Assembly: GCA_038757945.1 (NCBI GenBank)
Contig: JBCDGJ010000002.1
Location: 24,186 to 88,185 of the forward strand
Direction of reading: 5' to 3'
Source: Pseudomonadota bacterium
Lineage (GTDB): Bacteria > Pseudomonadota > Gammaproteobacteria > Pseudomonadales > Azotimanducaceae
DNA length: 64,000 nucleotides
Shown here piece by piece: positions 11,475-64,000 of the stretch. Every line of letters begins with the position of its first letter. The stretch's first letter is position 1. A model generated the notes under the pieces. It was not told where the DNA came from. It ran no database searches and saw only the letters and a program-made list of their open reading frames with translations. A program made the translations under genes and the position numbers.

Positions 11475-14075
11475 ATGGCACAGGGATCGCGCGCAAAAAG
11501 TTCTACGACGGGTAAAGCGCCAGCAAAACGACAGACGACAAAGCGGTCTACCGCCGGCAAAACGAAGCAGGAAAGTCCGATTCTCGAGCAGGCCATCACT
11601 GCAGTCGTCAGCATCGACGAAAACAACCTGGTGACCTTCTACAACAAATCCGCTGAGCTGCTCTGGGGCTACTCGGCAGAGGAAGTCATCGGCCGCAACG
11701 TGGCCATGCTGGTACCACCGGAGATGCAGAGCCAGCACGACAGCATGGTTGATGCCAACCGCACCACGGGTATCGACAAAATTGTGGGCACCAGCCGGGA
11801 AGTGCCCGTGCACCGCAAGGATGGCAGCCTCCGCTATGGCCGGTTGTCCCTCTCCAAAGTGCCGGTCGGCAAGAAAATCACCTACACAGCCTTCGTCGAG
11901 GACGTAACCGACCAGGTCCAGCAGCGCGAAGAGCTGCAGCAGATTTTTGCGCAGGCGGTTGACGCGGTCGTCAGCATCGACGAACAGAACATCGTGACCC
12001 GCTTCAACCCGGCGGCAGAGCGCCTCTGGGGCTACGACGCTGACGAGGTGCTGGGCAAAAACGTTTCCATGCTCGTGCCGCCAGAAATGCAGAGCCGGCA
12101 CGACGGCTTCGTCAACGCCAATCGCACCACTGGCGTCGACAAGATCGTCGGCACCAGCCGTGAGGTCCAGTTTCCCCGCAAAGACGGAACTCAGGTCTGG
12201 GGCAAACTCTCCCTGTCGCGAGTCAAGGTTGGGGATAGCATCACCTATACCGCCTTCGTTCAGGATGTCACCGCGGAGGTGGAACGACGCGAGGAGATCA
12301 AGGTCCTGTCGCTGGTTGCCAACGAAACCAGCAACTCGGTGGTCATCACGGACCCCCTCGGGCGCATCGAGTACGTCAACCCTGGCTTCTACAACATGAC
12401 CGGCTACACGCTGGACGACGTCGTCGGCAAGAAGCCCGGCGACGTGCTGCAGGGACCGTTGACGGATCAGGATACGGTGACCCGGATTCGTCATGCCCTG
12501 GAATCCCGCAAGCCGTTCTATGAAGAGATCCTTAATTATCGTCGCGACGGCAGCTCCTACTGGATCTCGCTGGCGGTCAACCCCGTGTGCAACGAGCAGG
12601 GGGAGATCTACAAGTTCGTCTCCGTGCAGGCGCTGATCGACGAGACCAAGCGCCAGCAGCTCGAGTATACGAACAAGATCAACGCGATCAGCCGGTCCCA
12701 GGCGGTGATCGAGTTTACGCCGGAAGGCAAGATCCTCGGCTGCAACGATAACTTCGAACGAGCCTCGGGCTTCAGTTCCGAAGAACTCATCGGCAAGCAC
12801 CACCGGATGCTGGTGGCCGCCGAGGAACAGGCGACCCCTGAATACCAGTCGCTCTGGAACCGCCTGGCTGCCGGCGAACCGTACGTCGCCAAGATCAAAC
12901 GGATGACCAAGAGCGGCGACCCCATGTATCTGCAGGCCTCGTACAATCCGATTCAGGACGCCGAGGGAAAAGTGTACATGGTGGTCAAGTACGCCTCTGA
13001 CGTCACCGAGCTGGAGCGTGAAGCGCTGATGGTTGCCGATGTGCTCTCGGAGTCGCGACAGGTCATGGAGGCCGTCGCCGAAGGCGATCTGACACAGACC
13101 GTGAACGGCCACTTCGAGGGCGACTGCGCTGTGCTGCAGAACGCCATCAACTCGAGCGTCGGCAAGCTGCGCGCAACGCTGGAGCAGATTGTCGAGTCGA
13201 GCCGCAACATGGGGCTGAGCGCGCAGACCGTCAGCCAGGGCAACCTGTCGCTGAGCCAGCGCACCGAGAACCAGGCGGCCACGCTGGAAGAAACGGCTGC
13301 CAGCATGGAGGAAATGACGAGCACCATCCGCTCCAACGCCGAAAACCTGAGAGAGGCGGATTCTCTCGCGGAAGTGGCGCGGGAAAAGGCCGACACGGGC
13401 GGCTCAGTGGTTGCTCAGGCCGTGCACGCCATGGATGAGATCAATGATGCCTCGAAGAAGATTGCCGACATCATCGGCGTCATCGACGAGATCGCGTTCC
13501 AAACCAACCTGCTGGCACTCAACGCCGCCGTCGAGGCCGCTCGCGCTGGTGAGCAGGGACGTGGATTTGCCGTGGTTGCTACGGAGGTCAGGAACCTGGC
13601 TCAGCGCAGTGCGGGTGCTGCCAAGGAAATCAAAGAGCTGATCAAGGACAGCGTCACCAAGGTCGATGAAGGCTCCCTTCTGGTGAACCGATCGGGCGAA
13701 ACGCTCACCGAAATCGTCGCCTCCGTGCAGCGCGTCAACGAGATCATCGGGCGTATCTCCGTCGCCAGCCAGGAACAGGCCGAAGGGGTCGACCAGGTCA
13801 ACCAGGCTGTTTCGAACATGGATCAGATGACGCAGAAGAACGCGGCGCTGGCCGAGGAAGCCACGTCAGCAAGTATGAACATGTCATCGGAATCGGAGTC
13901 TCTGAACCACCTGATTGGCGTATTTCAGCTTGGCCAGGAGCTCGAGCCGCAGCCGAGCCCTGCGGAGTTTCGAGCTCAGCCGACACCGCAGCCCGCAGCA
14001 ACCCAGGCCGCACCGGTCCAACGCCCCGTACCGGGCGCAGGGGGAGCCGCGGCTGAAGAGTGGGAAGAGTTCTGA
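11475..14075 (+). CDS. Soluble methyl-accepting chemotaxis protein with four to five tandem PAS domains, a HAMP-like linker and an MA signalling domain. It ends in the pentapeptide EWEEF.
   Basis: 866 aa. Repeated PAS blocks (...VVSIDE.N.V..FN.AAE.LWGY...[34 protein letters not shown]...). The signalling-domain consensus is [37 protein letters not shown]. No transmembrane segment is evident. The C-terminus is ...[18 protein letters not shown] Shine-Dalgarno lies 8 nt upstream of the ATG. Confidence 0.9.
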
Positions 14076-51570: not shown

Positions 51571-52611
51571 CTATCGCACTCGCCAGACTGTTACACCGCC
51601 CTGCGCATCAAGCGCTGCAAGCGCGCGCCCGTCCGGCCGCCAATGGACCCCTGCAACGAGATCATCGAGCAGCGCGGCGCCTATGGGATCACCTTCGCCA
51701 CTCTTCTGCAGTGACCATACGATCACTGCACCATCGCGACCGCCCGAGGCCAAGCGCATGCCACACCGCTCGAAACCGAGCGTCGTAACAGTTTTGACAT
51801 GTAGTTCCAGTGAGCCAGGCCGGGTACCAGCAGGACTGCCGAGCTCAAAGTTCCAGACTGTCACCGCTTGACCCCCACCAGTAGCCAGGAGGGTACCGGT
51901 AGAATCAAACGACAGTGCCGACGGCTTACCGGAATAGCCAGACATCATGTATTCGTCTTCGGTAGATCGACGCCAGAAGTGCACCGAGTTGTCCTGGCTG
52001 CCGCAGGCAACGATATCACCATCCGGGCTCAGCACCATCGATACCAGGGAGCCCTTCCACTCCAATTTCTGGCGAAGTACTCCCGTCGAAGCATCAAAGA
52101 AAGCCACACGACCGTAGCACGCCGTTGCGAGCTCTCCGGAGCTGGACCACGCGATCGAGCTAACGGTGCTGGGCTGGTCTTCGGTACGCCAGACTTCCCG
52201 CCCCTCGGTATCAAACACGCGCACCTGGCGGGCAACGGAGGCGGCCAGCCATTGACCGTCGGAAGACCATGCCACATGGTCAACCCAGCCCTCAGCAACA
52301 TCGACCGCCCGGTTTGCAGGACCTTCAGTCGCCTGCCAGATCAGCACCCGCCCGTCCTGTCCGGCCGTGGCGAAACAGGTACCCGGCGGGTTCACTGCCA
52401 TCGCCAGCGCACCGCCGTCGTGAACGTTCGACCTCGACCAGACCCCGGTTCCGGACTTGCCCTCAAAGGAGTGCACGCTCCCGGCGGCGTCACAGACGAC
52501 CAGCTCATCGCCACCGGCTGTCCAACCGCCGGCAATGGCGTAGTCACCGACCGCAGCAGACCAACCCCGGCGAAGCACACCCTCCGCTCGGATCGACTTC
52601 ACATCAGACAT
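51571..52611 (-). CDS. WD40-repeat beta-propeller protein
   Basis: 346 aa with about 7 repeats of the ...GS.D..V..W... type (VHSFEGKSG, RVLIWQATEG, VRVFDTEGRE, VHFWRRSTED, VTVWNFELGS, VIVWSLQKSG, VTVWRVR). Its start overlaps the COG0523 gene stop. Confidence 0.7.
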   Translation of the reverse strand: MSDVKSIRAEGVLRRGWSAAVGDYAIAGGWTAGGDELVVCDAAGSVHSFEGKSGTGVWSRSNVHDGGALAMAVNPPGTCFATAGQDGRVLIWQATEGPANRAVDVAEGWVDHVAWSSDGQWLAASVARQVRVFDTEGREVWRTEDQPSTVSSIAWSSSGELATACYGRVAFFDASTGVLRQKLEWKGSLVSMVLSPDGDIVACGSQDNSVHFWRRSTEDEYMMSGYSGKPSALSFDSTGTLLATGGGQAVTVWNFELGSPAGTRPGSLELHVKTVTTLGFERCGMRLASGGRDGAVIVWSLQKSGEGDPIGAALLDDLVAGVHWRPDGRALAALDAQGGVTVWRVR

Positions 52612-53945
52612 GCCTCAAAGCCTTGTCGCATGCCGTCTTCATCAAGATTGCGGCCAATAAAAACGAGCTGGTTGCGCCGCGGCGAATCCCCCCAGGGACG
52701 ATCCGGTTGGCCGTCAAAAAGCATATGAACACCCTGAAAGACAAAGCGTTCTGGCTCACCGGCGATGCTGATGAAGCCTTTCATCCGAAAGATGTCTACG
52801 CCTCGCTCGCGGAGCAACTCGCTGAGCCAGGCATTCAGCTTGTCCGGATCAACATCACCATCCCGCTCGATTGCGATTGAGCCAACTTCGTCGTCATGTT
52901 CGTGCTGCGCAACCCAGGTGCGTTCCACCTGTTGCAGCAAGGGCGCCCCACCCGCAGGAGACAGCTGCAGATCGAATTCTTCGGCGGTGTGCTGGGCGTA
53001 GAGTCCAACGCTCGTTGGCCTGTCGACATCCAGGAAAAACGATTTGCGTCCGGACGCGCTGAGCGCGAGCTCTACGTGCTGGCCGATGGAAATCTCTTCT
53101 CCCGGCTGCACGGGGACCGTTGGCTCCGCATACCGTCTGACGCAACACTCTGCCCCCTCCCGGAGCGCAGCGTCATCGACGCCCTGATCAAACCGAACGA
53201 CGAGCGACATCGACGGATCGGGCCCTTCTGCCAGGTTGAGCTCATAGCGGCCAGGCTCGAGCGCATAGACGCCGGTCCATTCGAAGGGATACTCCGGCTC
53301 GAGAAAGGTTGGACGGCGCTCGAGCACTTCGTCCAGATTAAAGGCGCCGAGGTTCAGAACGGTGTCGACCGGTACGTCCGCTTGTTCCGTACGCACGACA
53401 CTCGCCATCCGGTTCATCTCCTTGAGCCGGGTTTCCAGGCCATCGAGTCGCTCATCGTCGACCAGATCGGTCTTGTTCAGCACCAGTACGTCTGCGAAGG
53501 CAACCTGCTCGGTACTTTCACCACTGCGGCCGAGCTGCTGTTCTATGTGTGCGGTATCGACCAGCGTAACGATCCCGTCCAGCAAAAACTCTTCTCGGAT
53601 CTCATCATCCACAAAGAACGTCTGAGCAACCGGACCGGGGTCGGCAAGCCCCGTCGTCTCAACCAGCACGTAATCAAACTTGTCGCGACGTTTCATGAGG
53701 TTACCGAGCACCCGGATCAGGTCACCGCGCACCGTGCAGCAAATGCATCCATTCGACATTTCGAAGATTTCTTCATCTGCATCGATGACGAGCGCCTGAT
53801 CAATCCCAACCTCGCCATACTCGTTCTCGATGACTGCAATGCGCTTACCGTGCTCCTCGCTCAAGATCCGATTGAGCAGGGTCGTCTTGCCGGAGCCAAG
53901 AAAGCCAGTGAGGATCGTCACCGGGACTTTCTGCTGCGTATTCAT
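52599..53945 (-). CDS. COG0523 (CobW/YjiA/ZigA) G3E-family metallochaperone GTPase, long form with a C-terminal extension
   Basis: VTILTGFLGSGKTTLLNRIL is the Walker A. IAVIENEYGEVGID...EMSNGCICCTVRGD carries the CxCC metal motif. ...VLVETTGLADPGP... 448 aa. Confidence 0.85.
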   Translation of the reverse strand: MNTQQKVPVTILTGFLGSGKTTLLNRILSEEHGKRIAVIENEYGEVGIDQALVIDADEEIFEMSNGCICCTVRGDLIRVLGNLMKRRDKFDYVLVETTGLADPGPVAQTFFVDDEIREEFLLDGIVTLVDTAHIEQQLGRSGESTEQVAFADVLVLNKTDLVDDERLDGLETRLKEMNRMASVVRTEQADVPVDTVLNLGAFNLDEVLERRPTFLEPEYPFEWTGVYALEPGRYELNLAEGPDPSMSLVVRFDQGVDDAALREGAECCVRRYAEPTVPVQPGEEISIGQHVELALSASGRKSFFLDVDRPTSVGLYAQHTAEEFDLQLSPAGGAPLLQQVERTWVAQHEHDDEVGSIAIERDGDVDPDKLNAWLSELLRERGVDIFRMKGFISIAGEPERFVFQGVHMLFDGQPDRPWGDSPRRNQLVFIGRNLDEDGMRQGFEACLM

Positions 53946-54653
53946 TCAGTTCTCCTTATCGGATGGTGTGAAGGGACCAATCTGCACGTCATAGCCCCAG
54001 GCGCTGCACACAAGCACCAGATCACCGCCACCGAGCAGGAGCGCATTACTGCAGTGGTTCAGCACGGAGGAGAGATTGTGGACGACCAGAACGACCGCCC
54101 GCCCGCCGGTGCGCCAGCGACTGATGATCGACAGCAGATGCTCCTCTGTCTGCTGATCAATCGCAGCAAAGGGTTCGTCCAGCAGGATGAGTTGGGCATC
54201 CTGCATGATCACTCGAGCAAAGAGTGCACGCTGAAGTTGTCCGGTCGACAGGCTATGGAGTGGCCGATCGGCTAAGGCCAGAATGCCGACCTCATCGAGT
54301 GCCTGGGCGACCCGGCGGCGTCCTTCGCGATCGCGGCCCGCCCAGAGCCAGGAGCCTCGCCATGTTCCCATGGCCGCAAGGTCCCACACCCGCATCGGAA
54401 AACGGCGGTCGAACTCGCTCATCTGCGCTAGATAGCCAATCTCACGGGGGCGACCATTGGGCCAGGCAAGCTGCCCGGCAAGCGGCGTGATCAAGCCAAG
54501 CAGGGCTCTAACGAGGGTACTCTTACCCGAGCCGTTTGCCCCCAGCACAGCAAGCGTTGTTCCGCTTTCGATGTCGATGGAAAGCTGACGGAACAGCGTC
54601 AGATCGGGATACCCGAGAGCGAGGTTTCGAACCCGAAGCAGAGCGGTCATCAG
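53946..54653 (-). CDS. ABC transporter ATP-binding protein (metal-uptake ZnuC-like)
   Basis: The start is set at MTALLRVRNLALGY. Walker A is GANGSGKSTL. ABC signature LSTGQLQRALFAR. Walker B is LILLDEPFAAID. Confidence 0.75.
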   Translation of the reverse strand: MMTALLRVRNLALGYPDLTLFRQLSIDIESGTTLAVLGANGSGKSTLVRALLGLITPLAGQLAWPNGRPREIGYLAQMSEFDRRFPMRVWDLAAMGTWRGSWLWAGRDREGRRRVAQALDEVGILALADRPLHSLSTGQLQRALFARVIMQDAQLILLDEPFAAIDQQTEEHLLSIISRWRTGGRAVVLVVHNLSSVLNHCSNALLLGGGDLVLVCSAWGYDVQIGPFTPSDKEN

Positions 54654-55012
54654 CGCCCACCGGGGCCCGGGGGTACACGCCCAAGCACACTGGCTTGAAG
54701 CGCTTTCGGGGGTCGATAACGCTCCATCAGTCCATCTCTCGTGTGCACGTAGGTGGAAAGGCACTCGAGGATTTCTTCAGCTGTCTCACCGGGCTGCTGG
54801 TCTCCGAACAGGTAGGTCCAGGCGCCAGGTGACGTAAGCGCGATTCCGCAGGGGCGCGGGCACAAACTGAGACAGGACGCTGGCTCGATCTGCACCAGGT
54901 CACGAAGTGGGCTGCCCTCGAGCAGCGCTTTGAGCTGCTGATACAACCTGAAACCGGGCCGATCTTCCTGAGGTTCACGGGGTGCCCCCGAGGGTCTGCA
55001 GGAAGTACACAC
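54650..55012 (-). CDS. DUF1636-like small Cys-containing predicted metal-binding protein
   Basis: 120 aa beginning MCTSCRP (CxxC) with further Cys (CLSLCPRPCG). Proteins of this kind commonly neighbour COG0523 genes. Tentative. Confidence 0.45.
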   Translation of the reverse strand: MCTSCRPSGAPREPQEDRPGFRLYQQLKALLEGSPLRDLVQIEPASCLSLCPRPCGIALTSPGAWTYLFGDQQPGETAEEILECLSTYVHTRDGLMERYRPPKALQASVLGRVPPGPGGR

Positions 55013-59167: not shown

Positions 59168-61087
59168 TCAGCTCAGTCCAGCGATGTCCTGCGCGACACG
59201 GTCGGCAAAGGCCTCTACCGAAAGACTGCCGAGGTCTTCACCGCTACGGGTACGCACAGCGACCTCCCCGGTTGTCATCTCCTGATCACCCACTACCAGC
59301 AGGTAGGGAATCGCTTGCAGCGTGTGCTCCCGAATCTTGAAGCCGATCTTTTCGTTACGCAGATCGGAAATGACCCGGACGCCGCGGGCCTTAAGGCAAC
59401 GCACCACCTTGTCGACGTAGTCGTCCTGACGATCCGTGATGTTCAGCACCGCAGCCTGCACCGGTGACAGCCAGACCGGGAACTTGCCTTCGTAATGTTC
59501 GATCAGGATTCCGGTGAAGCGCTCCAGGGAACCGAACAGGGCCCGATGCAACATGACCGGGCGCTTGTCGCGGCCGCCGCTTTCATCGACATAGGAGATA
59601 TCAAACCGTTCGGGCAGGTTCATATCGACCTGCAGCGTACCGCACTGCCAGTCGCGGCCGATGGCGTCACGCAGCACAAACTCGAGCTTCGGACCGTAGA
59701 ACGCGCCTTCTCCCGGATACAGCACATAGTCGAGACCCATGGATTCAAGCGCATTGCTCAACGCACCTTCCAGCTTGTCCCAGACTTCATCGCTACCGAT
59801 TCGCTTCTCCGGGCGGGTCGACAGCTTGATGACCACATCCTCGAAGCCGAAATCCTTGTAGATGTCGAGCACCAGGGCGACGACGTCGACACACTCCTGC
59901 TCCATCTGCGCTTCGGTGCAGTAAATGTGCGCATCGTCCTGGGTAAAGTGACGCACCCGCATGAGCCCATGTAATGCGCCCGACGGTTCGTAGCGGTGGA
60001 CCTTTCCGAACTCGGCCATGCGCAAGGGCAGATCGCGGTAGCTCTTCAATCCCTGCGCGAACATCGAGACCGACCCGGGACAGTTCATAGGCTTGAGTGC
60101 AAAGACCCGCTCGTCTTCGGTCTGGGTCGAAAACATGTTTTCCCGGTAGTTGAACCAGTGGCCCGATGTTTCCCACAGGCTGCGATCCATCACGTCGGGC
60201 GTATTCACCTCAACGTAGCCTGCTTCTTCCTGGCGCTTGCGCATGTAATCCAGTAGCTGCCGGAACAGGGTCCAGCCCTTCGGGTGCCAGTAGACCGACC
60301 CGGGCGCTTCGTCGCTCAAGTGAAACAGATCAAGCTTTCGACCGAGCTTCCGGTGATCGCGCTTTTCTGCTTCTTCCAGACGACGGAGATAGGCTTTCAG
60401 CTCCTTTTCACTGCGCCAGGCGGTCCCATAGATACGCTGCAGCATCTCGTTGTCCGAGTTGCCGCGCCAGTACGCGCCTGCGAGCTTCATCAGCTTGAAA
60501 GCCTTCGGCAGTTTGCCGGTACTCGGCAGATGTGGGCCACGGCAGACATCAAACCAGTCGCCCTGACGATAGACTGAAACTTCCTCGCCCTCGGGGATGA
60601 TGTCTTCGATGATCTGGACCTTGTAGTCCTCACCAATCTCCCGAAAGACCTTTATGGCCTGATCGCGGTCCCAGACTTCCCGCTCAATCGGCAGATCGCG
60701 GCCGACGATTTCGCGCATGCGCGCTTCGATCTTTTCCAGATCCTCCGGGGAGAACGGCTCGTCTCTGGCAAAGTCGTAGTAAAAGCCGTCCTCAATCGCC
60801 GGTCCGATGGTTACCTGCGTACCCGGATACAGTTCCTGCACCGCCTGGGCCATCACGTGGGCTGCGTCGTGGCGCAGAAGCTCCAGCGCTTCGTCACTTT
60901 TGCTGGTAATGATCGCCAGTTCGGCATCGGCCTCGAGCAGGTGCGAGGTATCGACCAGCGCGCCGTTAACCGTACCAGCGAGCGCGGCCTTCGCGAGTCC
61001 CGGGCCAATGTCTGCGGCAACGTCTTGGATGCTAACGGGCTGTTCGTACTGGCGAACGGCACCATCGGGGAGGGTAATCTGGGGCAT
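59168..61087 (-). CDS. thrS: Threonine--tRNA ligase
   Basis: Starts [38 protein letters not shown], as in E. coli ThrRS. Class II core and anticodon-binding domain are present. About 639 aa from the internal Met. Confidence 0.95.
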
Positions 61088-61249
61088 AACGATGTCTCCG
61101 TCAGTGGCGGTCATTACCAAAGACCGCATGGCTTCCTGTCTACGAGCGTAGACAGCTCAATCTATGCCTAGTGTATCAGTGAATTCGAGACCCGGCGATC
61201 TACAGATATCTGCTTTGCCGGCGCACCGTGATCAGCGGGCGCACCGTAT

Positions 61250-61369
61250 TCAGCAGCAGCAGCCGTCCTTGCAGCAGGCGCAGGTCTTCTCCGCACAGCA
61301 ATCCTTGTTGCCAGGCGCGTTTTTACCGCACTCACACGTACATTTGCTCTGATCTTTCTCTTCAGCCAT
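61250..61369 (-). CDS. Metallothionein-like Cys-rich peptide: 39 aa with 11 Cys (absent from the ORF track)
   Basis: Minus-strand translation gives MAEEKDQSKCTCECGKNAPGNKDCCAEKTCACCKDGCCC, then stop. A GGAG Shine-Dalgarno lies 6 nt upstream of the ATG. It is directly downstream of and co-directional with an ArsR/SmtB regulator gene. Confidence 0.6.
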   Translation of the reverse strand: MAEEKDQSKCTCECGKNAPGNKDCCAEKTCACCKDGCCC

Positions 61370-61408
61370 GTTTTCTCCATTTCTTCCTTGTACTACTCGC
61401 ACCGAGGG

Positions 61409-61696
61409 TCAGCCCTCAATCAGATCTGCCAGCGTACGCAGTTTTTCCGCCACCTCATGGCGATTCAGGGCGTACTTTCGCTCGCGACCCTTTTTTCTCA
61501 TCCGTACCACGCCCTCCTGCTCCAACAGCTTCAGATGGCGCGACACGACCGACGCGTCAACGCTGCAGCATTCACACAAGCACATGGCGTTTTGGGGCTC
61601 TTCGCACTGGCACAGCTCGTACACGAGGGATAGCCGGTTGAATTCACCAAGCGCCTTGAGCAATGCTGCGAGCTCATTAACTTCGTCCGCGTCCAC
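61409..61696 (-). CDS. ArsR/SmtB-family metal-sensing transcriptional repressor
   Basis: 95 aa. The wHTH region carries a Cys-rich sensing site (LSLVYELCQCEEPQNAMCLCECCSV), then DASVVSRHLKLLEQEGVV. Confidence 0.75.
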   Translation of the reverse strand: MDADEVNELAALLKALGEFNRLSLVYELCQCEEPQNAMCLCECCSVDASVVSRHLKLLEQEGVVRMRKKGRERKYALNRHEVAEKLRTLADLIEG

Positions 61697-61991
61697 GCCT
61701 TATATTTGCTCATTTGTGCATATATGTCAACATAAGACTGCCGCGGCCCAACCGAGCAGAACGTTTCCGCCCACCCTCGACAGGTGAGTTGAGCATCCCG
61801 CGCCACGTTCTCCCGCCACTCTTTTACCTGCCACGTTCTCCACACCACATCGACGAAAGCGGTGGGCGAGACCCAGGGCAACGGCGTCCGAGTAGAGACC
61901 TGCGGCAGCGGCTCGAGAGGCAAGGCTGCGCCTGGATCCTCACCGCGGTTTAGTGGCAAACTCCCGAAGATTCATCCTGGGGGAGCACGAT

Positions 61992-62741
61992 ATGTCCGAA
62001 CCGATCAACGTTTACTTCGTGTGCGGGGGCAAATACCACGACATCGATTTCGTCCGGCTGGAAATGCTGAAGCTGTTCTCCGAAGACCAGCGATTCAGGG
62101 TACGCATGGCGGATGATTACTCAAAGATCGACGAGATCACTGCATCGGACGTGCTGGTGACCTACACCGTAGATGTCGTCCCAACCGATGAGGAAACCGA
62201 GCAACTGGAACAGTGGCTCAGTTCCGGAAACCGATGGTTCGCGCTGCATGCAACCAACTCGATTCTCGAATTCACCGACAACGGTGTTGACTGCCCACGC
62301 CGCGCGCCAAAGTTCATGCACATGCTTGGCAGCCAGTTCACCGGGCATCCGCCGATTGACTACTACCCGGTAACCGTTGAACCCGGCAAAGAAGAACATC
62401 CGCTGGTCGCGGGCATCGACCCCATGCTCGTCGAGGACGAGCTCTACGTTTCCGAGTTCTACGATGACGTCGAAGTGCTGCTCAAGACGCGCTGGGGAGG
62501 CGCGTGCGATGGATTTGTGGAAGACACTGTCGAAGAGCGCGACCACCCAATCATGTATCTGAGGAAGTACGGTAAGGGCACGGTGCTGTTCCTTACGCTT
62601 GGTCATGCGCGCTCGAAGTACGACCTGAGACCCATGGTCGATGTGTATCCGAAGATGGAACGCGGCTCGTGGACCGTACCCGACTTCTACGAACTGCTAC
62701 GGCGCGGTCTGAAGTGGAGCGCCGGAGAGATTGCCGCCTAG
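61992..62741 (+). CDS. ThuA-like / class-I glutamine-amidotransferase-like domain protein (tentative)
   Basis: The start is set at MSEPINVYFVCGGKYHDIDF. The track ORF begins 13 codons earlier. About 250 aa. Confidence 0.5.
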   Translation: MSEPINVYFVCGGKYHDIDFVRLEMLKLFSEDQRFRVRMADDYSKIDEITASDVLVTYTVDVVPTDEETEQLEQWLSSGNRWFALHATNSILEFTDNGVDCPRRAPKFMHMLGSQFTGHPPIDYYPVTVEPGKEEHPLVAGIDPMLVEDELYVSEFYDDVEVLLKTRWGGACDGFVEDTVEERDHPIMYLRKYGKGTVLFLTLGHARSKYDLRPMVDVYPKMERGSWTVPDFYELLRRGLKWSAGEIAA

Positions 62742-62971: not shown

Positions 62972-63730
62972 ATGTTTCGGAAATCCATAACTCTTCCAGC
63001 CCTCTTCCTGCTCATCGCGACGCTCACCGCCTGCACAGCAGCGCCAACCGCCGATGATCAGACGGCGGAGACTGACGAAGCCCTCATCGCACGAGCCCTC
63101 GAGATCCACGACCGGGTACTGACCCTCGACACCCATGCAGATACCCCGCTGCGCATGATCGAGCCGGGGTTCGACATGGCAGAGCGGCACGACCCGAGAG
63201 AAACCGGATCAAAGGTCGATTACCCGAGAATGAAGGACGGCGGGCTGGATTCCATCTTCTTCGCCGCTTTTGTTGCGCAGGACATTCGCAACGACGAAGG
63301 CAATCGACGGGCAAAGGAGCTGAGCCTGCAGATGATTGATGCGGTCATTGCATCAACAGAAACCAATGCCGATATCGCCGGTCTGGCACTGACTCCAGAA
63401 GACGCCTACGCGCTGGAGAAGGAGGGCAAACGGGCGATCTTCATCGGCATCGAAAACGGTTATCCCATCGGCGACGACCTGTCTAACGTTGAGCTCTATT
63501 TCGACAAGGGCGTGCGCTACATAACCCTGGTGCATTCGAGCAACAACGATCTGGCGGACTCCGCTACAGACTCAAACGGGGCTGAACACGAGGGAATCAG
63601 CGAGCTGGGCGAGGCGGTGGTCCGGGAAATGAACCGCCTGGGCATCATGGTAGACGTCTCGCACGGCAGCGACGATGTCTTCTACGATGCGATTGCCACG
63701 TCGGACGCGCCAATCAGTATAAAAAGCTAG
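62972..63730 (+). pseudogene. Membrane dipeptidase (peptidase M19) lipoprotein: an N-terminal ~250 aa fragment. The reading frame ends at the first unit of a tandem-repeat array.
   Basis: Lipobox LIATLTAC. M19 motifs (...LDTHADTPLRM...ITLVHSSNNDLADSA...VDVSHGSDDVFYDA...). M19 enzymes are usually about 350-420 aa. Here the stop (…APISIKS*) coincides with the first repeat unit at about 63.71 kb. Confidence 0.5.
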
Positions 63731-64000
63731 GGCGCTGCAGCAACAAGAAATGGGCAGTATAAAAAACGGGGGCGCTGCCGCAGCGAGAATTGGTAAGTAT
63801 AAAAAGCGCAGGCGCTGCTGCAACGAGAAAAGGGCAGTATAAAAAGTGGGGGCGCTGCCGCAACGAAAACCGGGCAGTATAAAAACTGGGGCGCTGCCGC
63901 AACAAGAAAAGGGCAGTAAAAAAACGTGGGGCGCTGCCGCAACGAGAAATGGGCAGTATAAAAAGCGGGGGCGCTGCCGCAGATCGAAAGGGCGAGTTTA
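63712..64000. repeat. Tandem array of at least 7 units of ~45 bp (consensus GGGCAGTATAAAAAGNGGGGGCGCTGCCGCAACGAGAAAN). It continues beyond the window end.
   Basis: Seen directly: the units cagtataaaaagctagggcgctgcagcaacaagaaatggg / cagtataaaaaacgggggcgctgccgcagcgagaattggtaag / tataaaaagcgcaggcgctgctgcaacgagaaaaggg / cagtataaaaagtgggggcgctgccgcaacgaaaaccggg / ... Each unit contains TATAAAAA and a CTGCC(G)...GGGCAG inverted pair. Confidence 0.85.

Follow-up and report, generated by a model that had tools for sequence, protein, structure and literature searches.

A conserved ArsR/SmtB-linked micro-ORF and a likely new family of bacterial metallothioneins

Described systems and the present locus

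The bacterial metallothioneins SmtA and BmtA are proteins of about 56 residues that contain histidine as well as cysteine and have a zinc-finger-like fold (PF02069), and SmtB senses zinc at an alpha-5 His/Asp/Glu site. MymT has 53 residues, contains histidine and is under the control of the CsoR-type regulator RicR. SmtB–SmtA of Synechococcus PCC 7942, BxmR–BmtA of Oscillatoria brevis and AzuR–NmtA of Anabaena (PMC8790569) serve here as comparison systems, as does MymT, a very small, cytosolic and metal-protective Cu(I) metallothionein of mycobacteria that was long overlooked by gene callers (PMC7387436). Bacterial metallothioneins are regarded as rare; functions have been studied only in the SmtA/BmtA and MymT families, and recent papers name no other bacterial type (PMC7387436, PMC13578184). 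Here we describe a micro-open reading frame (micro-ORF) directly downstream of an ArsR/SmtB-family repressor gene in a 64,000-nucleotide (nt) stretch of contig JBCDGJ010000002.1 from a member of the Pseudomonadota (Azotimanducaceae), hereafter the window. Judged from sequence, its cysteine-rich product most likely belongs to an undescribed family of bacterial metallothioneins.

The present locus resembles SmtB–SmtA in that an ArsR/SmtB sensor is encoded beside the small Cys-rich protein it would control, with an inverted-repeat operator within the promoter, and in that a cytosolic sink needs no transporter. An earlier sequence-only reading of this DNA had likened it to smtB–smtA modules; the comparison holds for this logic but fails for the gene arrangement and the sensor site. 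The known pair is divergent whereas the genes here are co-directional and probably form a leaderless operon, and the alpha-5 site of SmtB is absent from the present repressor, which has an all-cysteine site. In contrast to SmtA and BmtA, the peptide typically has about 31 residues with 11 cysteines and essentially no histidine, and it gives no match to PF02069. With MymT it shares very small size, richness in cysteine and neglect by gene callers; the two are set apart by description, MymT being controlled by RicR rather than by an ArsR/SmtB protein and restricted to mycobacteria, whereas the present family occurs in at least five phyla. The alpha-domain of vertebrate metallothionein (MT2) has about 30 residues with exactly 11 cysteines in CxC, CC and CxxC arrangements, is rich in Lys, Ser and Thr, lacks aromatics and forms an M(II)4Cys11 cluster. 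The number of cysteines in about 30 residues is the same in the present peptide, but homology to the vertebrate domain (PF00131) is not detectable, and the peptide is bacterial, consists of a single domain and has a different cysteine spacing that ends in CCC.

In the window the micro-ORF occupies 61250..61369 on the minus strand (39 codons plus TGA; ATG 61369..61367, TGA 61252..61250) and encodes MAEEKDQSKCTCECGKNAPGNKDCCAEKTCACCKDGCCC, a product of 39 residues of which 11 (28%) are cysteine. A Shine-Dalgarno motif, GGAG, lies at 61375..61378 on the same strand, 5 nt 5' of the ATG, and 39 nt separate that ATG from the stop codon of the co-directional arsR gene. The sequence-only reading had proposed exactly this ORF, with a good Shine-Dalgarno motif and an upstream ArsR/SmtB gene with the segment ELCQCEE...CLCECC; both are present, and translation reproduced the peptide and its stop exactly. 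It had also called the ORF unannotated, as indeed it is: the exact window peptide is absent from recorded called genes, unlike the identical ArsR of the same NCBI metagenome-assembled genome, which is recorded and named (P0028). Among all window ORFs of at least 25 residues, the micro-ORF is the richest in cysteine (28%; runner-up 17.6%), and none of 200 block-wise shuffles yielded an ORF of 25–60 residues with more than 9 cysteines. Together with the codon-level selection described below, the shuffles led us to reject a chance ORF.

Conservation and composition of the peptide family

Following the repressor through species-representative genomes, we found a Cys-rich micro-ORF of 29–38 codons directly after arsR in 34 of 34, spread over the Pseudomonadota, Cyanobacteria, Planctomycetota, Nitrospinota and Myxococcota. 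One of the carriers is Cf. Phormidesmis sp. LEGE 11477 (L018). When the operator DNA by itself was used to scan metagenomes, 24 more close homologues of arsR came up, and the peptide gene was present in all 22 of these loci with enough downstream sequence (one copy frameshifted). Starting from the peptide itself, a 29-member profile brought up 20 proteins of 30–55 residues that have neither a name nor a Pfam domain, and the repressor lay just upstream in three of the four lineages looked up, including L043–L046. Six further contigs reached via repressor homologues all carried the peptide; in the five long enough for their genes to be listed, none was called at its position. A GGAG/AGGAG-type motif stands at a similar distance before the peptide ATG in most related loci.

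The 67 distinct peptides are 29–39 residues long (median 31) and consist of 34% cysteine, with no Phe, Trp or Tyr and only two histidines in 2162 residues. Exactly 11 cysteines occur in 63 of them, and 62 match the full motif CxCxC-x(4-9)-CC-x4-CxCC-x3-CCC. Each of the eleven cysteine columns keeps its Cys in at least 34 of the 35 aligned sequences, the codon being TGT in some and TGC in others, and non-cysteine positions (E-K-T/S and K-D/E) are conserved as well. Synonymous differences are saturated, at a mean proportion (pS) of 0.89 as against 0.26 for nonsynonymous differences (pN), and each of the 595 pairs has pN lower than pS. Because the cysteines are invariant, their codons mixed and pN lower than pS, we conclude that the peptide is under purifying selection as a protein. 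The comparison of Cys-rich peptides beside arsR homologues that the earlier reading had suggested shows, therefore, a micro-ORF conserved as protein and not merely as DNA, and it is almost certainly a real gene and a member of a new family.

Only the arsR–peptide pair and its promoter are conserved, with flanking genes varying between loci, so the pair points to an autonomous module in which the peptide is almost always joined to one specific Cys-rich ArsR/SmtB subfamily. We think it reasonably likely, from the sequences compared, that this module is a self-contained, autoregulated two-gene operon that is derepressed by metal and makes a metallothionein-like, metal-sequestering peptide. Two damaged copies were seen: the peptide gene at L012:4317-4406 stops early (…CECCT, then a stop; eight cysteines) and the L078 copy is frameshifted, either of which could be an assembly error or a pseudogene. 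In an AT-rich marine lineage (L039:5001-5099 and L040–L042) no ArsR is found in the approximately 220–300 nt available upstream, and the peptide gene is followed by a conserved 61-residue protein with the SEC-C motif, a zinc-binding motif, and by SelO.

The peptide has the sequence-level characters of the operational metallothionein class in full: it is small (below about 10 kDa), it is high in cysteine in CxC, CC and CCC arrangements, and it has few or no aromatics and little histidine. An AlphaFold2 (AF2) model of the apo-peptide had a predicted local distance difference test score (pLDDT) of 62.8 with no confident fold; at this low confidence we make no fold claim, and the model is merely compatible with metal-dependent folding.

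The sequence-only reading had found the peptide unlike the metallothioneins it could recall and had suggested an undescribed bacterial family. Nothing in our searches speaks otherwise, as the peptide matched no known metallothionein or other family and no source names it. It fits no Pfam or NCBIfam family, the sole signal being a chance Cys-run match to LSR (E 0.15), and Pfam searches at E up to 10 returned nothing for the 29 members tested, PF02069 and PF00131 included. Alignment with hhalign gave a probability of 0.2% against SmtA and of 3.9%, over 12 columns, against human MT2. A word-indexed protein search with a 40-residue peptide gave no match, and an exhaustive phmmer search with the 39-residue peptide against 1.84 billion representatives gave none either, probably because the query is short and compositionally biased and the genes are uncalled. 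A literature search found no description of this peptide family, which is unnamed in every source checked and skipped by gene callers.

The family has stayed hidden because genes of about 31 codons go uncalled, which makes it a clear example of a functional small ORF overlooked by annotation; its carriers in five phyla are mostly uncultured genomes. A third family of bacterial metallothioneins would, if confirmed, alter the picture of how bacteria buffer thiophilic metals, and the sensor–operator–chelator cassette of about 0.5 kb could find use in biosensing or bioremediation.

The sequence-only reading had also placed the micro-ORF next to the leader region of thrS. That gene does follow on the same strand (61129/61087..59168), but the proximity is incidental since no other locus has thrS beside the pair. 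A GC-rich 9-bp hairpin (61219..61246, minus strand) lies directly after the micro-ORF stop codon. It is formed by an 18-nt tandem duplication at 61217..61252 (GCCGGCGCACCGTGATCA / GCGGGCGCACCGTATTCA on the plus strand) that takes in the stop codon itself, and without a U tract it is not a canonical intrinsic terminator. No terminator-like site was detected in 60900–62000, and of 35 loci just 8 show, in the 130 nt beyond the peptide gene, a hairpin followed by a T run. A short Cys-rich ORF just before thrS, with a hairpin between them, is the arrangement that would be expected if the micro-ORF were a Cys-sensing leader peptide for the downstream gene, or alternatively the precursor of a ribosomally synthesized and post-translationally modified peptide (RiPP). 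However, each lineage has a different gene downstream, the neighbourhood contains no conserved maturase, radical-SAM enzyme or transporter, the conserved non-cysteine positions are needless in a leader peptide, and an Rfam scan of 60800–62100 found nothing, neither leader nor riboswitch. We rejected both roles, which are barely credible given the variable flanks, the lack of a maturase and the non-cysteine conservation.

Repressor, promoter and proposed regulation

The repressor gene (61409..61696, minus strand) starts with GTG and encodes 95 residues that match NF033788, "metalloregulator ArsR/SmtB family", at 56.9 bits (cut-off 55) and Pfam HTH_5 at 20.1 bits, just under the cut-off of 22. 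A profile search of the PDB gave CadC/Lmo1102 as the closest solved structures (E about 1e-10), with CzrA, NmtR and SmtB also matched, and the top Foldseek matches of the AF2 model were CadC, CzrA and SmtB, all of the ArsR/SmtB family (template modelling score about 0.5). On this sequence evidence the partner protein is a bona fide ArsR/SmtB metalloregulator. Its homologues form about 822 clusters at 90% identity and, where a source names them, bear only the names "metalloregulator ArsR/SmtB family transcription factor", "ArsR family transcriptional regulator", "helix-turn-helix transcriptional regulator" or "hypothetical protein".

Six cysteines (C29, C31, C39, C41, C43 and C44) lie in the segment ELCQCEE...MCLCECC, and all six are invariant in 44 homologues. 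In the alignment C39-L-C41 corresponds to C58-V-C60 of CadC, the alpha-3 CxC thiolate motif, and C29 corresponds to CadC C52. C44 falls at what we take to be the position of C37 in ArsR R773, and C39-x-C41-x-x-C44 presumably reproduces the CxCxxC triad of that protein. CadC (pI258) and ArsR (R773) are thiolate-site members of the ArsR/SmtB family, but the present repressor differs from them in lacking N-terminal cysteines, in a four-residue insertion and in three extra invariant cysteines, C31 and C43 being additional. Its gene is, furthermore, not linked to cadA or ars genes. The AF2 model of the repressor (pLDDT 81.7) is a winged helix in which residues 29–47 form a non-helical, lower-confidence loop, so that the six-Cys loop is predicted to stand in place of helix alpha-3.

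Residues 1–28 hold neither His nor Cys and hence no alpha-3N site, and the C-terminal helix (ending ...LRTLADLIEG) has no His pair, so that the alpha-5 His/Asp/Glu site is absent. As both the alpha-5 and the N-terminal metal sites are missing, the sensory site must be the six-Cys loop. We found no published description of such an all-thiolate six-Cys sensor variant, which, if it is one, would add a new type of sensory site to the well-studied ArsR/SmtB family. In yeast Ace1/CUP2–CUP1 and in CopY, a Cys-rich segment of the transcription factor forms a polynuclear thiolate cluster and controls metallothionein or copper-handling genes. These are functional analogies only; folds and kingdoms are unrelated, and the factors are an activator or belong to another repressor family.

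Cysteines in an ArsR-type sensor could also answer thiol-reactive stress rather than metal. Oxidants, electrophiles or sulfane sulfur would then oxidise or persulfidate the repressor, with the peptide acting as a sacrificial thiol or polysulfide carrier. The non-metal Cys sensors BigR and SqrR, also of the ArsR family, are among the weaker matches of the repressor, some carriers (Hydrogenovibrio, Thiosulfatimonas) are sulfur oxidisers, and four loci have a Pyr_redox_3 flavoprotein close to the module. We nevertheless consider this quite unlikely: the BigR model scores 27.8 bits on the repressor against a cut-off of 155, the sensing Cys pair of BigR and SqrR sits elsewhere in the fold, sulfur-oxidation genes are not consistently linked in the compared loci, and 34% cysteine with CCC runs suits metal–thiolate clusters better than a redox buffer.

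The close homologues of the repressor in the 34 genomes have 68–87% identity across phyla, and module GC content follows host GC content from 38 to 63% (Spearman 0.93). This combination of high identity and host-like composition indicates long residence under very strong constraint. Recent horizontal spread was rejected as an explanation, given the tracking of host GC and the saturation of synonymous sites. The repressor gave no match at E 1e-10 or better among 72,556 plasmids, and the window has no flanking repeats or mobile-element boundaries.

Such conservation of the repressor, even as its GC content adapted to its hosts, would also be expected if the peptide were its regulatory partner, passing metal to the Cys loop or taking it from there through exchange of thiolate ligands, or serving as an anti-repressor, so that the operon senses how far the buffer is filled. 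The two genes are linked and conserved together to an unusual degree, and the CxC...CxCxCC of the repressor loop resembles the motifs of the peptide itself. However, the peptide stands without an adjacent repressor in L039–L042, and no known ArsR/SmtB sensor needs a peptide partner. A partner role is therefore unlikely in our view, and a peptide that sequesters metal under the control of the repressor remains the preferred reading.

The promoter of the operon is of a near-consensus sigma-70 type by its sequence. A -35 hexamer, TTGACA, lies at 61725..61730 (minus strand), and TTGAC(A/T) occurs at the same position in nearly all of the 34 aligned upstream regions from five phyla. The likely -10 box, AAATAT (61707..61702), follows 17 nt after it and is often preceded by TG in the family. 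Between and over the two boxes lies, in all loci, a 24-bp inverted repeat, the putative operator. In the window it reads ATATATGC-ACAAATGA-GCAAATAT (61702..61725, minus strand), with the outer arms forming the repeat and the last six bases the -10 box, and the family consensus from 34 loci is ATATTTGC-aCAAATAt-GCAAATAT (ATATTTGC-N8-GCAAATAT). The 64-kb window contains a single match to the operator (0.01 expected by chance), and each related locus likewise has one, always directly upstream of arsR.

Also conserved across phyla is the upstream consensus aTTGACatATTTGCaCAAATAtGCAAATATa, with the start codon 4–6 nt beyond it; counted from the AAATAT box, the start codon lies 5–7 nt downstream across loci and the window GTG 5 nt downstream. 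Transcription should begin about where the start codon lies, so the arsR mRNA is probably leaderless, which would explain why gene callers often choose upstream starts (giving products of 100–138 residues).

A second promoter class was seen in metagenomes (L048, L049, L054, L058, L059, L063, L067, L068, L070, L075, L081 and L082), with the same 24-bp operator reversed and further upstream and a TATAnT-like box 6–7 nt before the arsR ATG; by this spacing it is apparently leaderless again. In L053, L055, L064, L077 and L069, distant ArsR paralogues (39–42% identity, or undetected by tblastn) stand beside a very similar operator without a peptide gene, and the operator type may thus be older or wider than its pairing with the peptide.

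From the sequences we infer repressor–DNA binding, derepression by metal, a leaderless start and metal binding by the peptide, including which metal is bound and in what stoichiometry, as parts of one cycle. In the inducer-free state the dimeric repressor would sit on the operator and block RNA polymerase. A thiophilic metal, most likely Zn(II)/Cd(II), with Cu(I) as the alternative, would bind the six-Cys loop and lower the affinity for DNA, as in other ArsR/SmtB sensors. Transcription would then begin on the arsR start codon or no more than a few bases from it, and the bicistronic transcript would give more repressor and, from its own Shine-Dalgarno motif, the peptide. The 11 cysteines of the peptide would wrap metal ions in a thiolate cluster, providing a cytoplasmic buffer or store. 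If it behaves like the vertebrate metallothionein alpha-domain with its 11 cysteines, the capacity would be about four divalent ions, or more of Cu(I).

A bolder version, which we regard as rather doubtful, is that the first helix of the repressor's helix-turn-helix has been swapped for a metallothionein-like six-Cys loop that exchanges metal with the peptide, so that the operon measures saturation of the buffer and not free metal, which would amount to a new principle of sensing. The peptides would then be the smallest known bacterial metallothioneins and a phylum-spanning group, carried by a leaderless near-consensus promoter that works in any bacterial host.

Neighbouring genes and the metal

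Zinc-homeostasis genes recur near the module in differing gene orders and phyla. We found znuA in L012, L022, L030 and L032, folE2 in L002, L003 and L017, and COG0523 in L012, L028, L032, L033 and L085/L086 as well as in the window (52599–53945). In L085 COG0523 and DUF1826, a domain linked to Zur, lie directly upstream of the module, and in the planctomycete L033 COG0523 is divergent from it. The genes znuABC, COG0523 (yciC/zigA) and folE2 are members of Zur regulons (PMC6103462), and a second thrS is known as a Zur-regulon member or zinc-regulated copy in Anabaena (PMC4787780, PMC6103462). By our rough and uncomputed estimate, chance would place well under one such zinc neighbour in about 45 contexts. 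The metal is probably zinc, with cadmium as its chemical companion, and possibly Cu(I).

Iron is another candidate, with an iron–sulfur (Fe-S) cluster on the repressor loop, the peptide or both, and a module that reports or serves iron or Fe-S status. Densely clustered cysteines can serve as ligands of [4Fe-4S] or [2Fe-2S] centres, as they do in some winged-helix regulators such as SufR, and the module of L083/L084 has TonB/ExbBD and FecR-type genes in its vicinity. The recurrent neighbours are, however, of zinc type rather than iron type, no suf or isc gene is linked in the compared loci, and directly adjacent cysteines, as in CC and CCC, are not the typical spacing of Fe-S ligands, all of which makes this very unlikely.

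Several observations weigh against the metal-derepressed operon proposed here. The lineage L039–L042 carries the peptide without an adjacent repressor, and the size of the family rests on fetched loci because the single-peptide phmmer search found nothing. In several members, the window copy included, arsR starts with GTG, an unfavourable codon for leaderless translation in Escherichia coli, which weakens the case for a leaderless start. An all-Cys site would suit Cu(I), Pb, Hg, As(III), Cd or Ag as well as Zn. Most loci have no metal-related neighbour, and in the compared loci the module is linked to no efflux pump, ars gene or copper gene, which sets only weak limits on which metal it could be. 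The zinc-linked neighbours are, moreover, genes of zinc starvation, whereas ArsR-type derepression normally answers metal excess; a storage or buffer role is therefore as plausible as detoxification. No match to the gamma-proteobacterial Zur-box consensus was found in the window.

The window COG0523 gene belongs to a cluster at 51571-55012 (minus strand), 6–10 kb from the module, that comprises a WD40 protein, a 448-residue COG0523 (CobW-type) GTPase, an ABC ATPase and DUF1636, and resembles clusters for the uptake and chaperoning of zinc or cobalt. A COG0523–WD40 pair also stands beside the module in the cyanobacterial L012 and L028. Downstream of the window thrS (59168-61129, minus strand) lies not infC but a gene for a 546-residue SMP-30/gluconolactonase-like protein; the true thrS start is probably the ATG at 61087 (MPQITLPDG...) and not 61129, and an 8-bp hairpin lies just upstream (61160-61138). 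Divergently upstream of the window module is a ThuA-like gene (61953-62741, plus strand), and L087 has a ThuA gene (11570-12355) about 3 kb from its module, beside an M14 zinc peptidase. Further on in the window, an ORF for an M19 zinc dipeptidase (62972-63730) covers only positions 2–198 of the 319-position Pfam model. A 40-nt tandem repeat (63715-63981; 6.7 copies, 82% matches, consensus CAGTATAAAAAGCGGGGGCGCTGCCGCAACGAGAAATGGG) starts just inside its 3' end.

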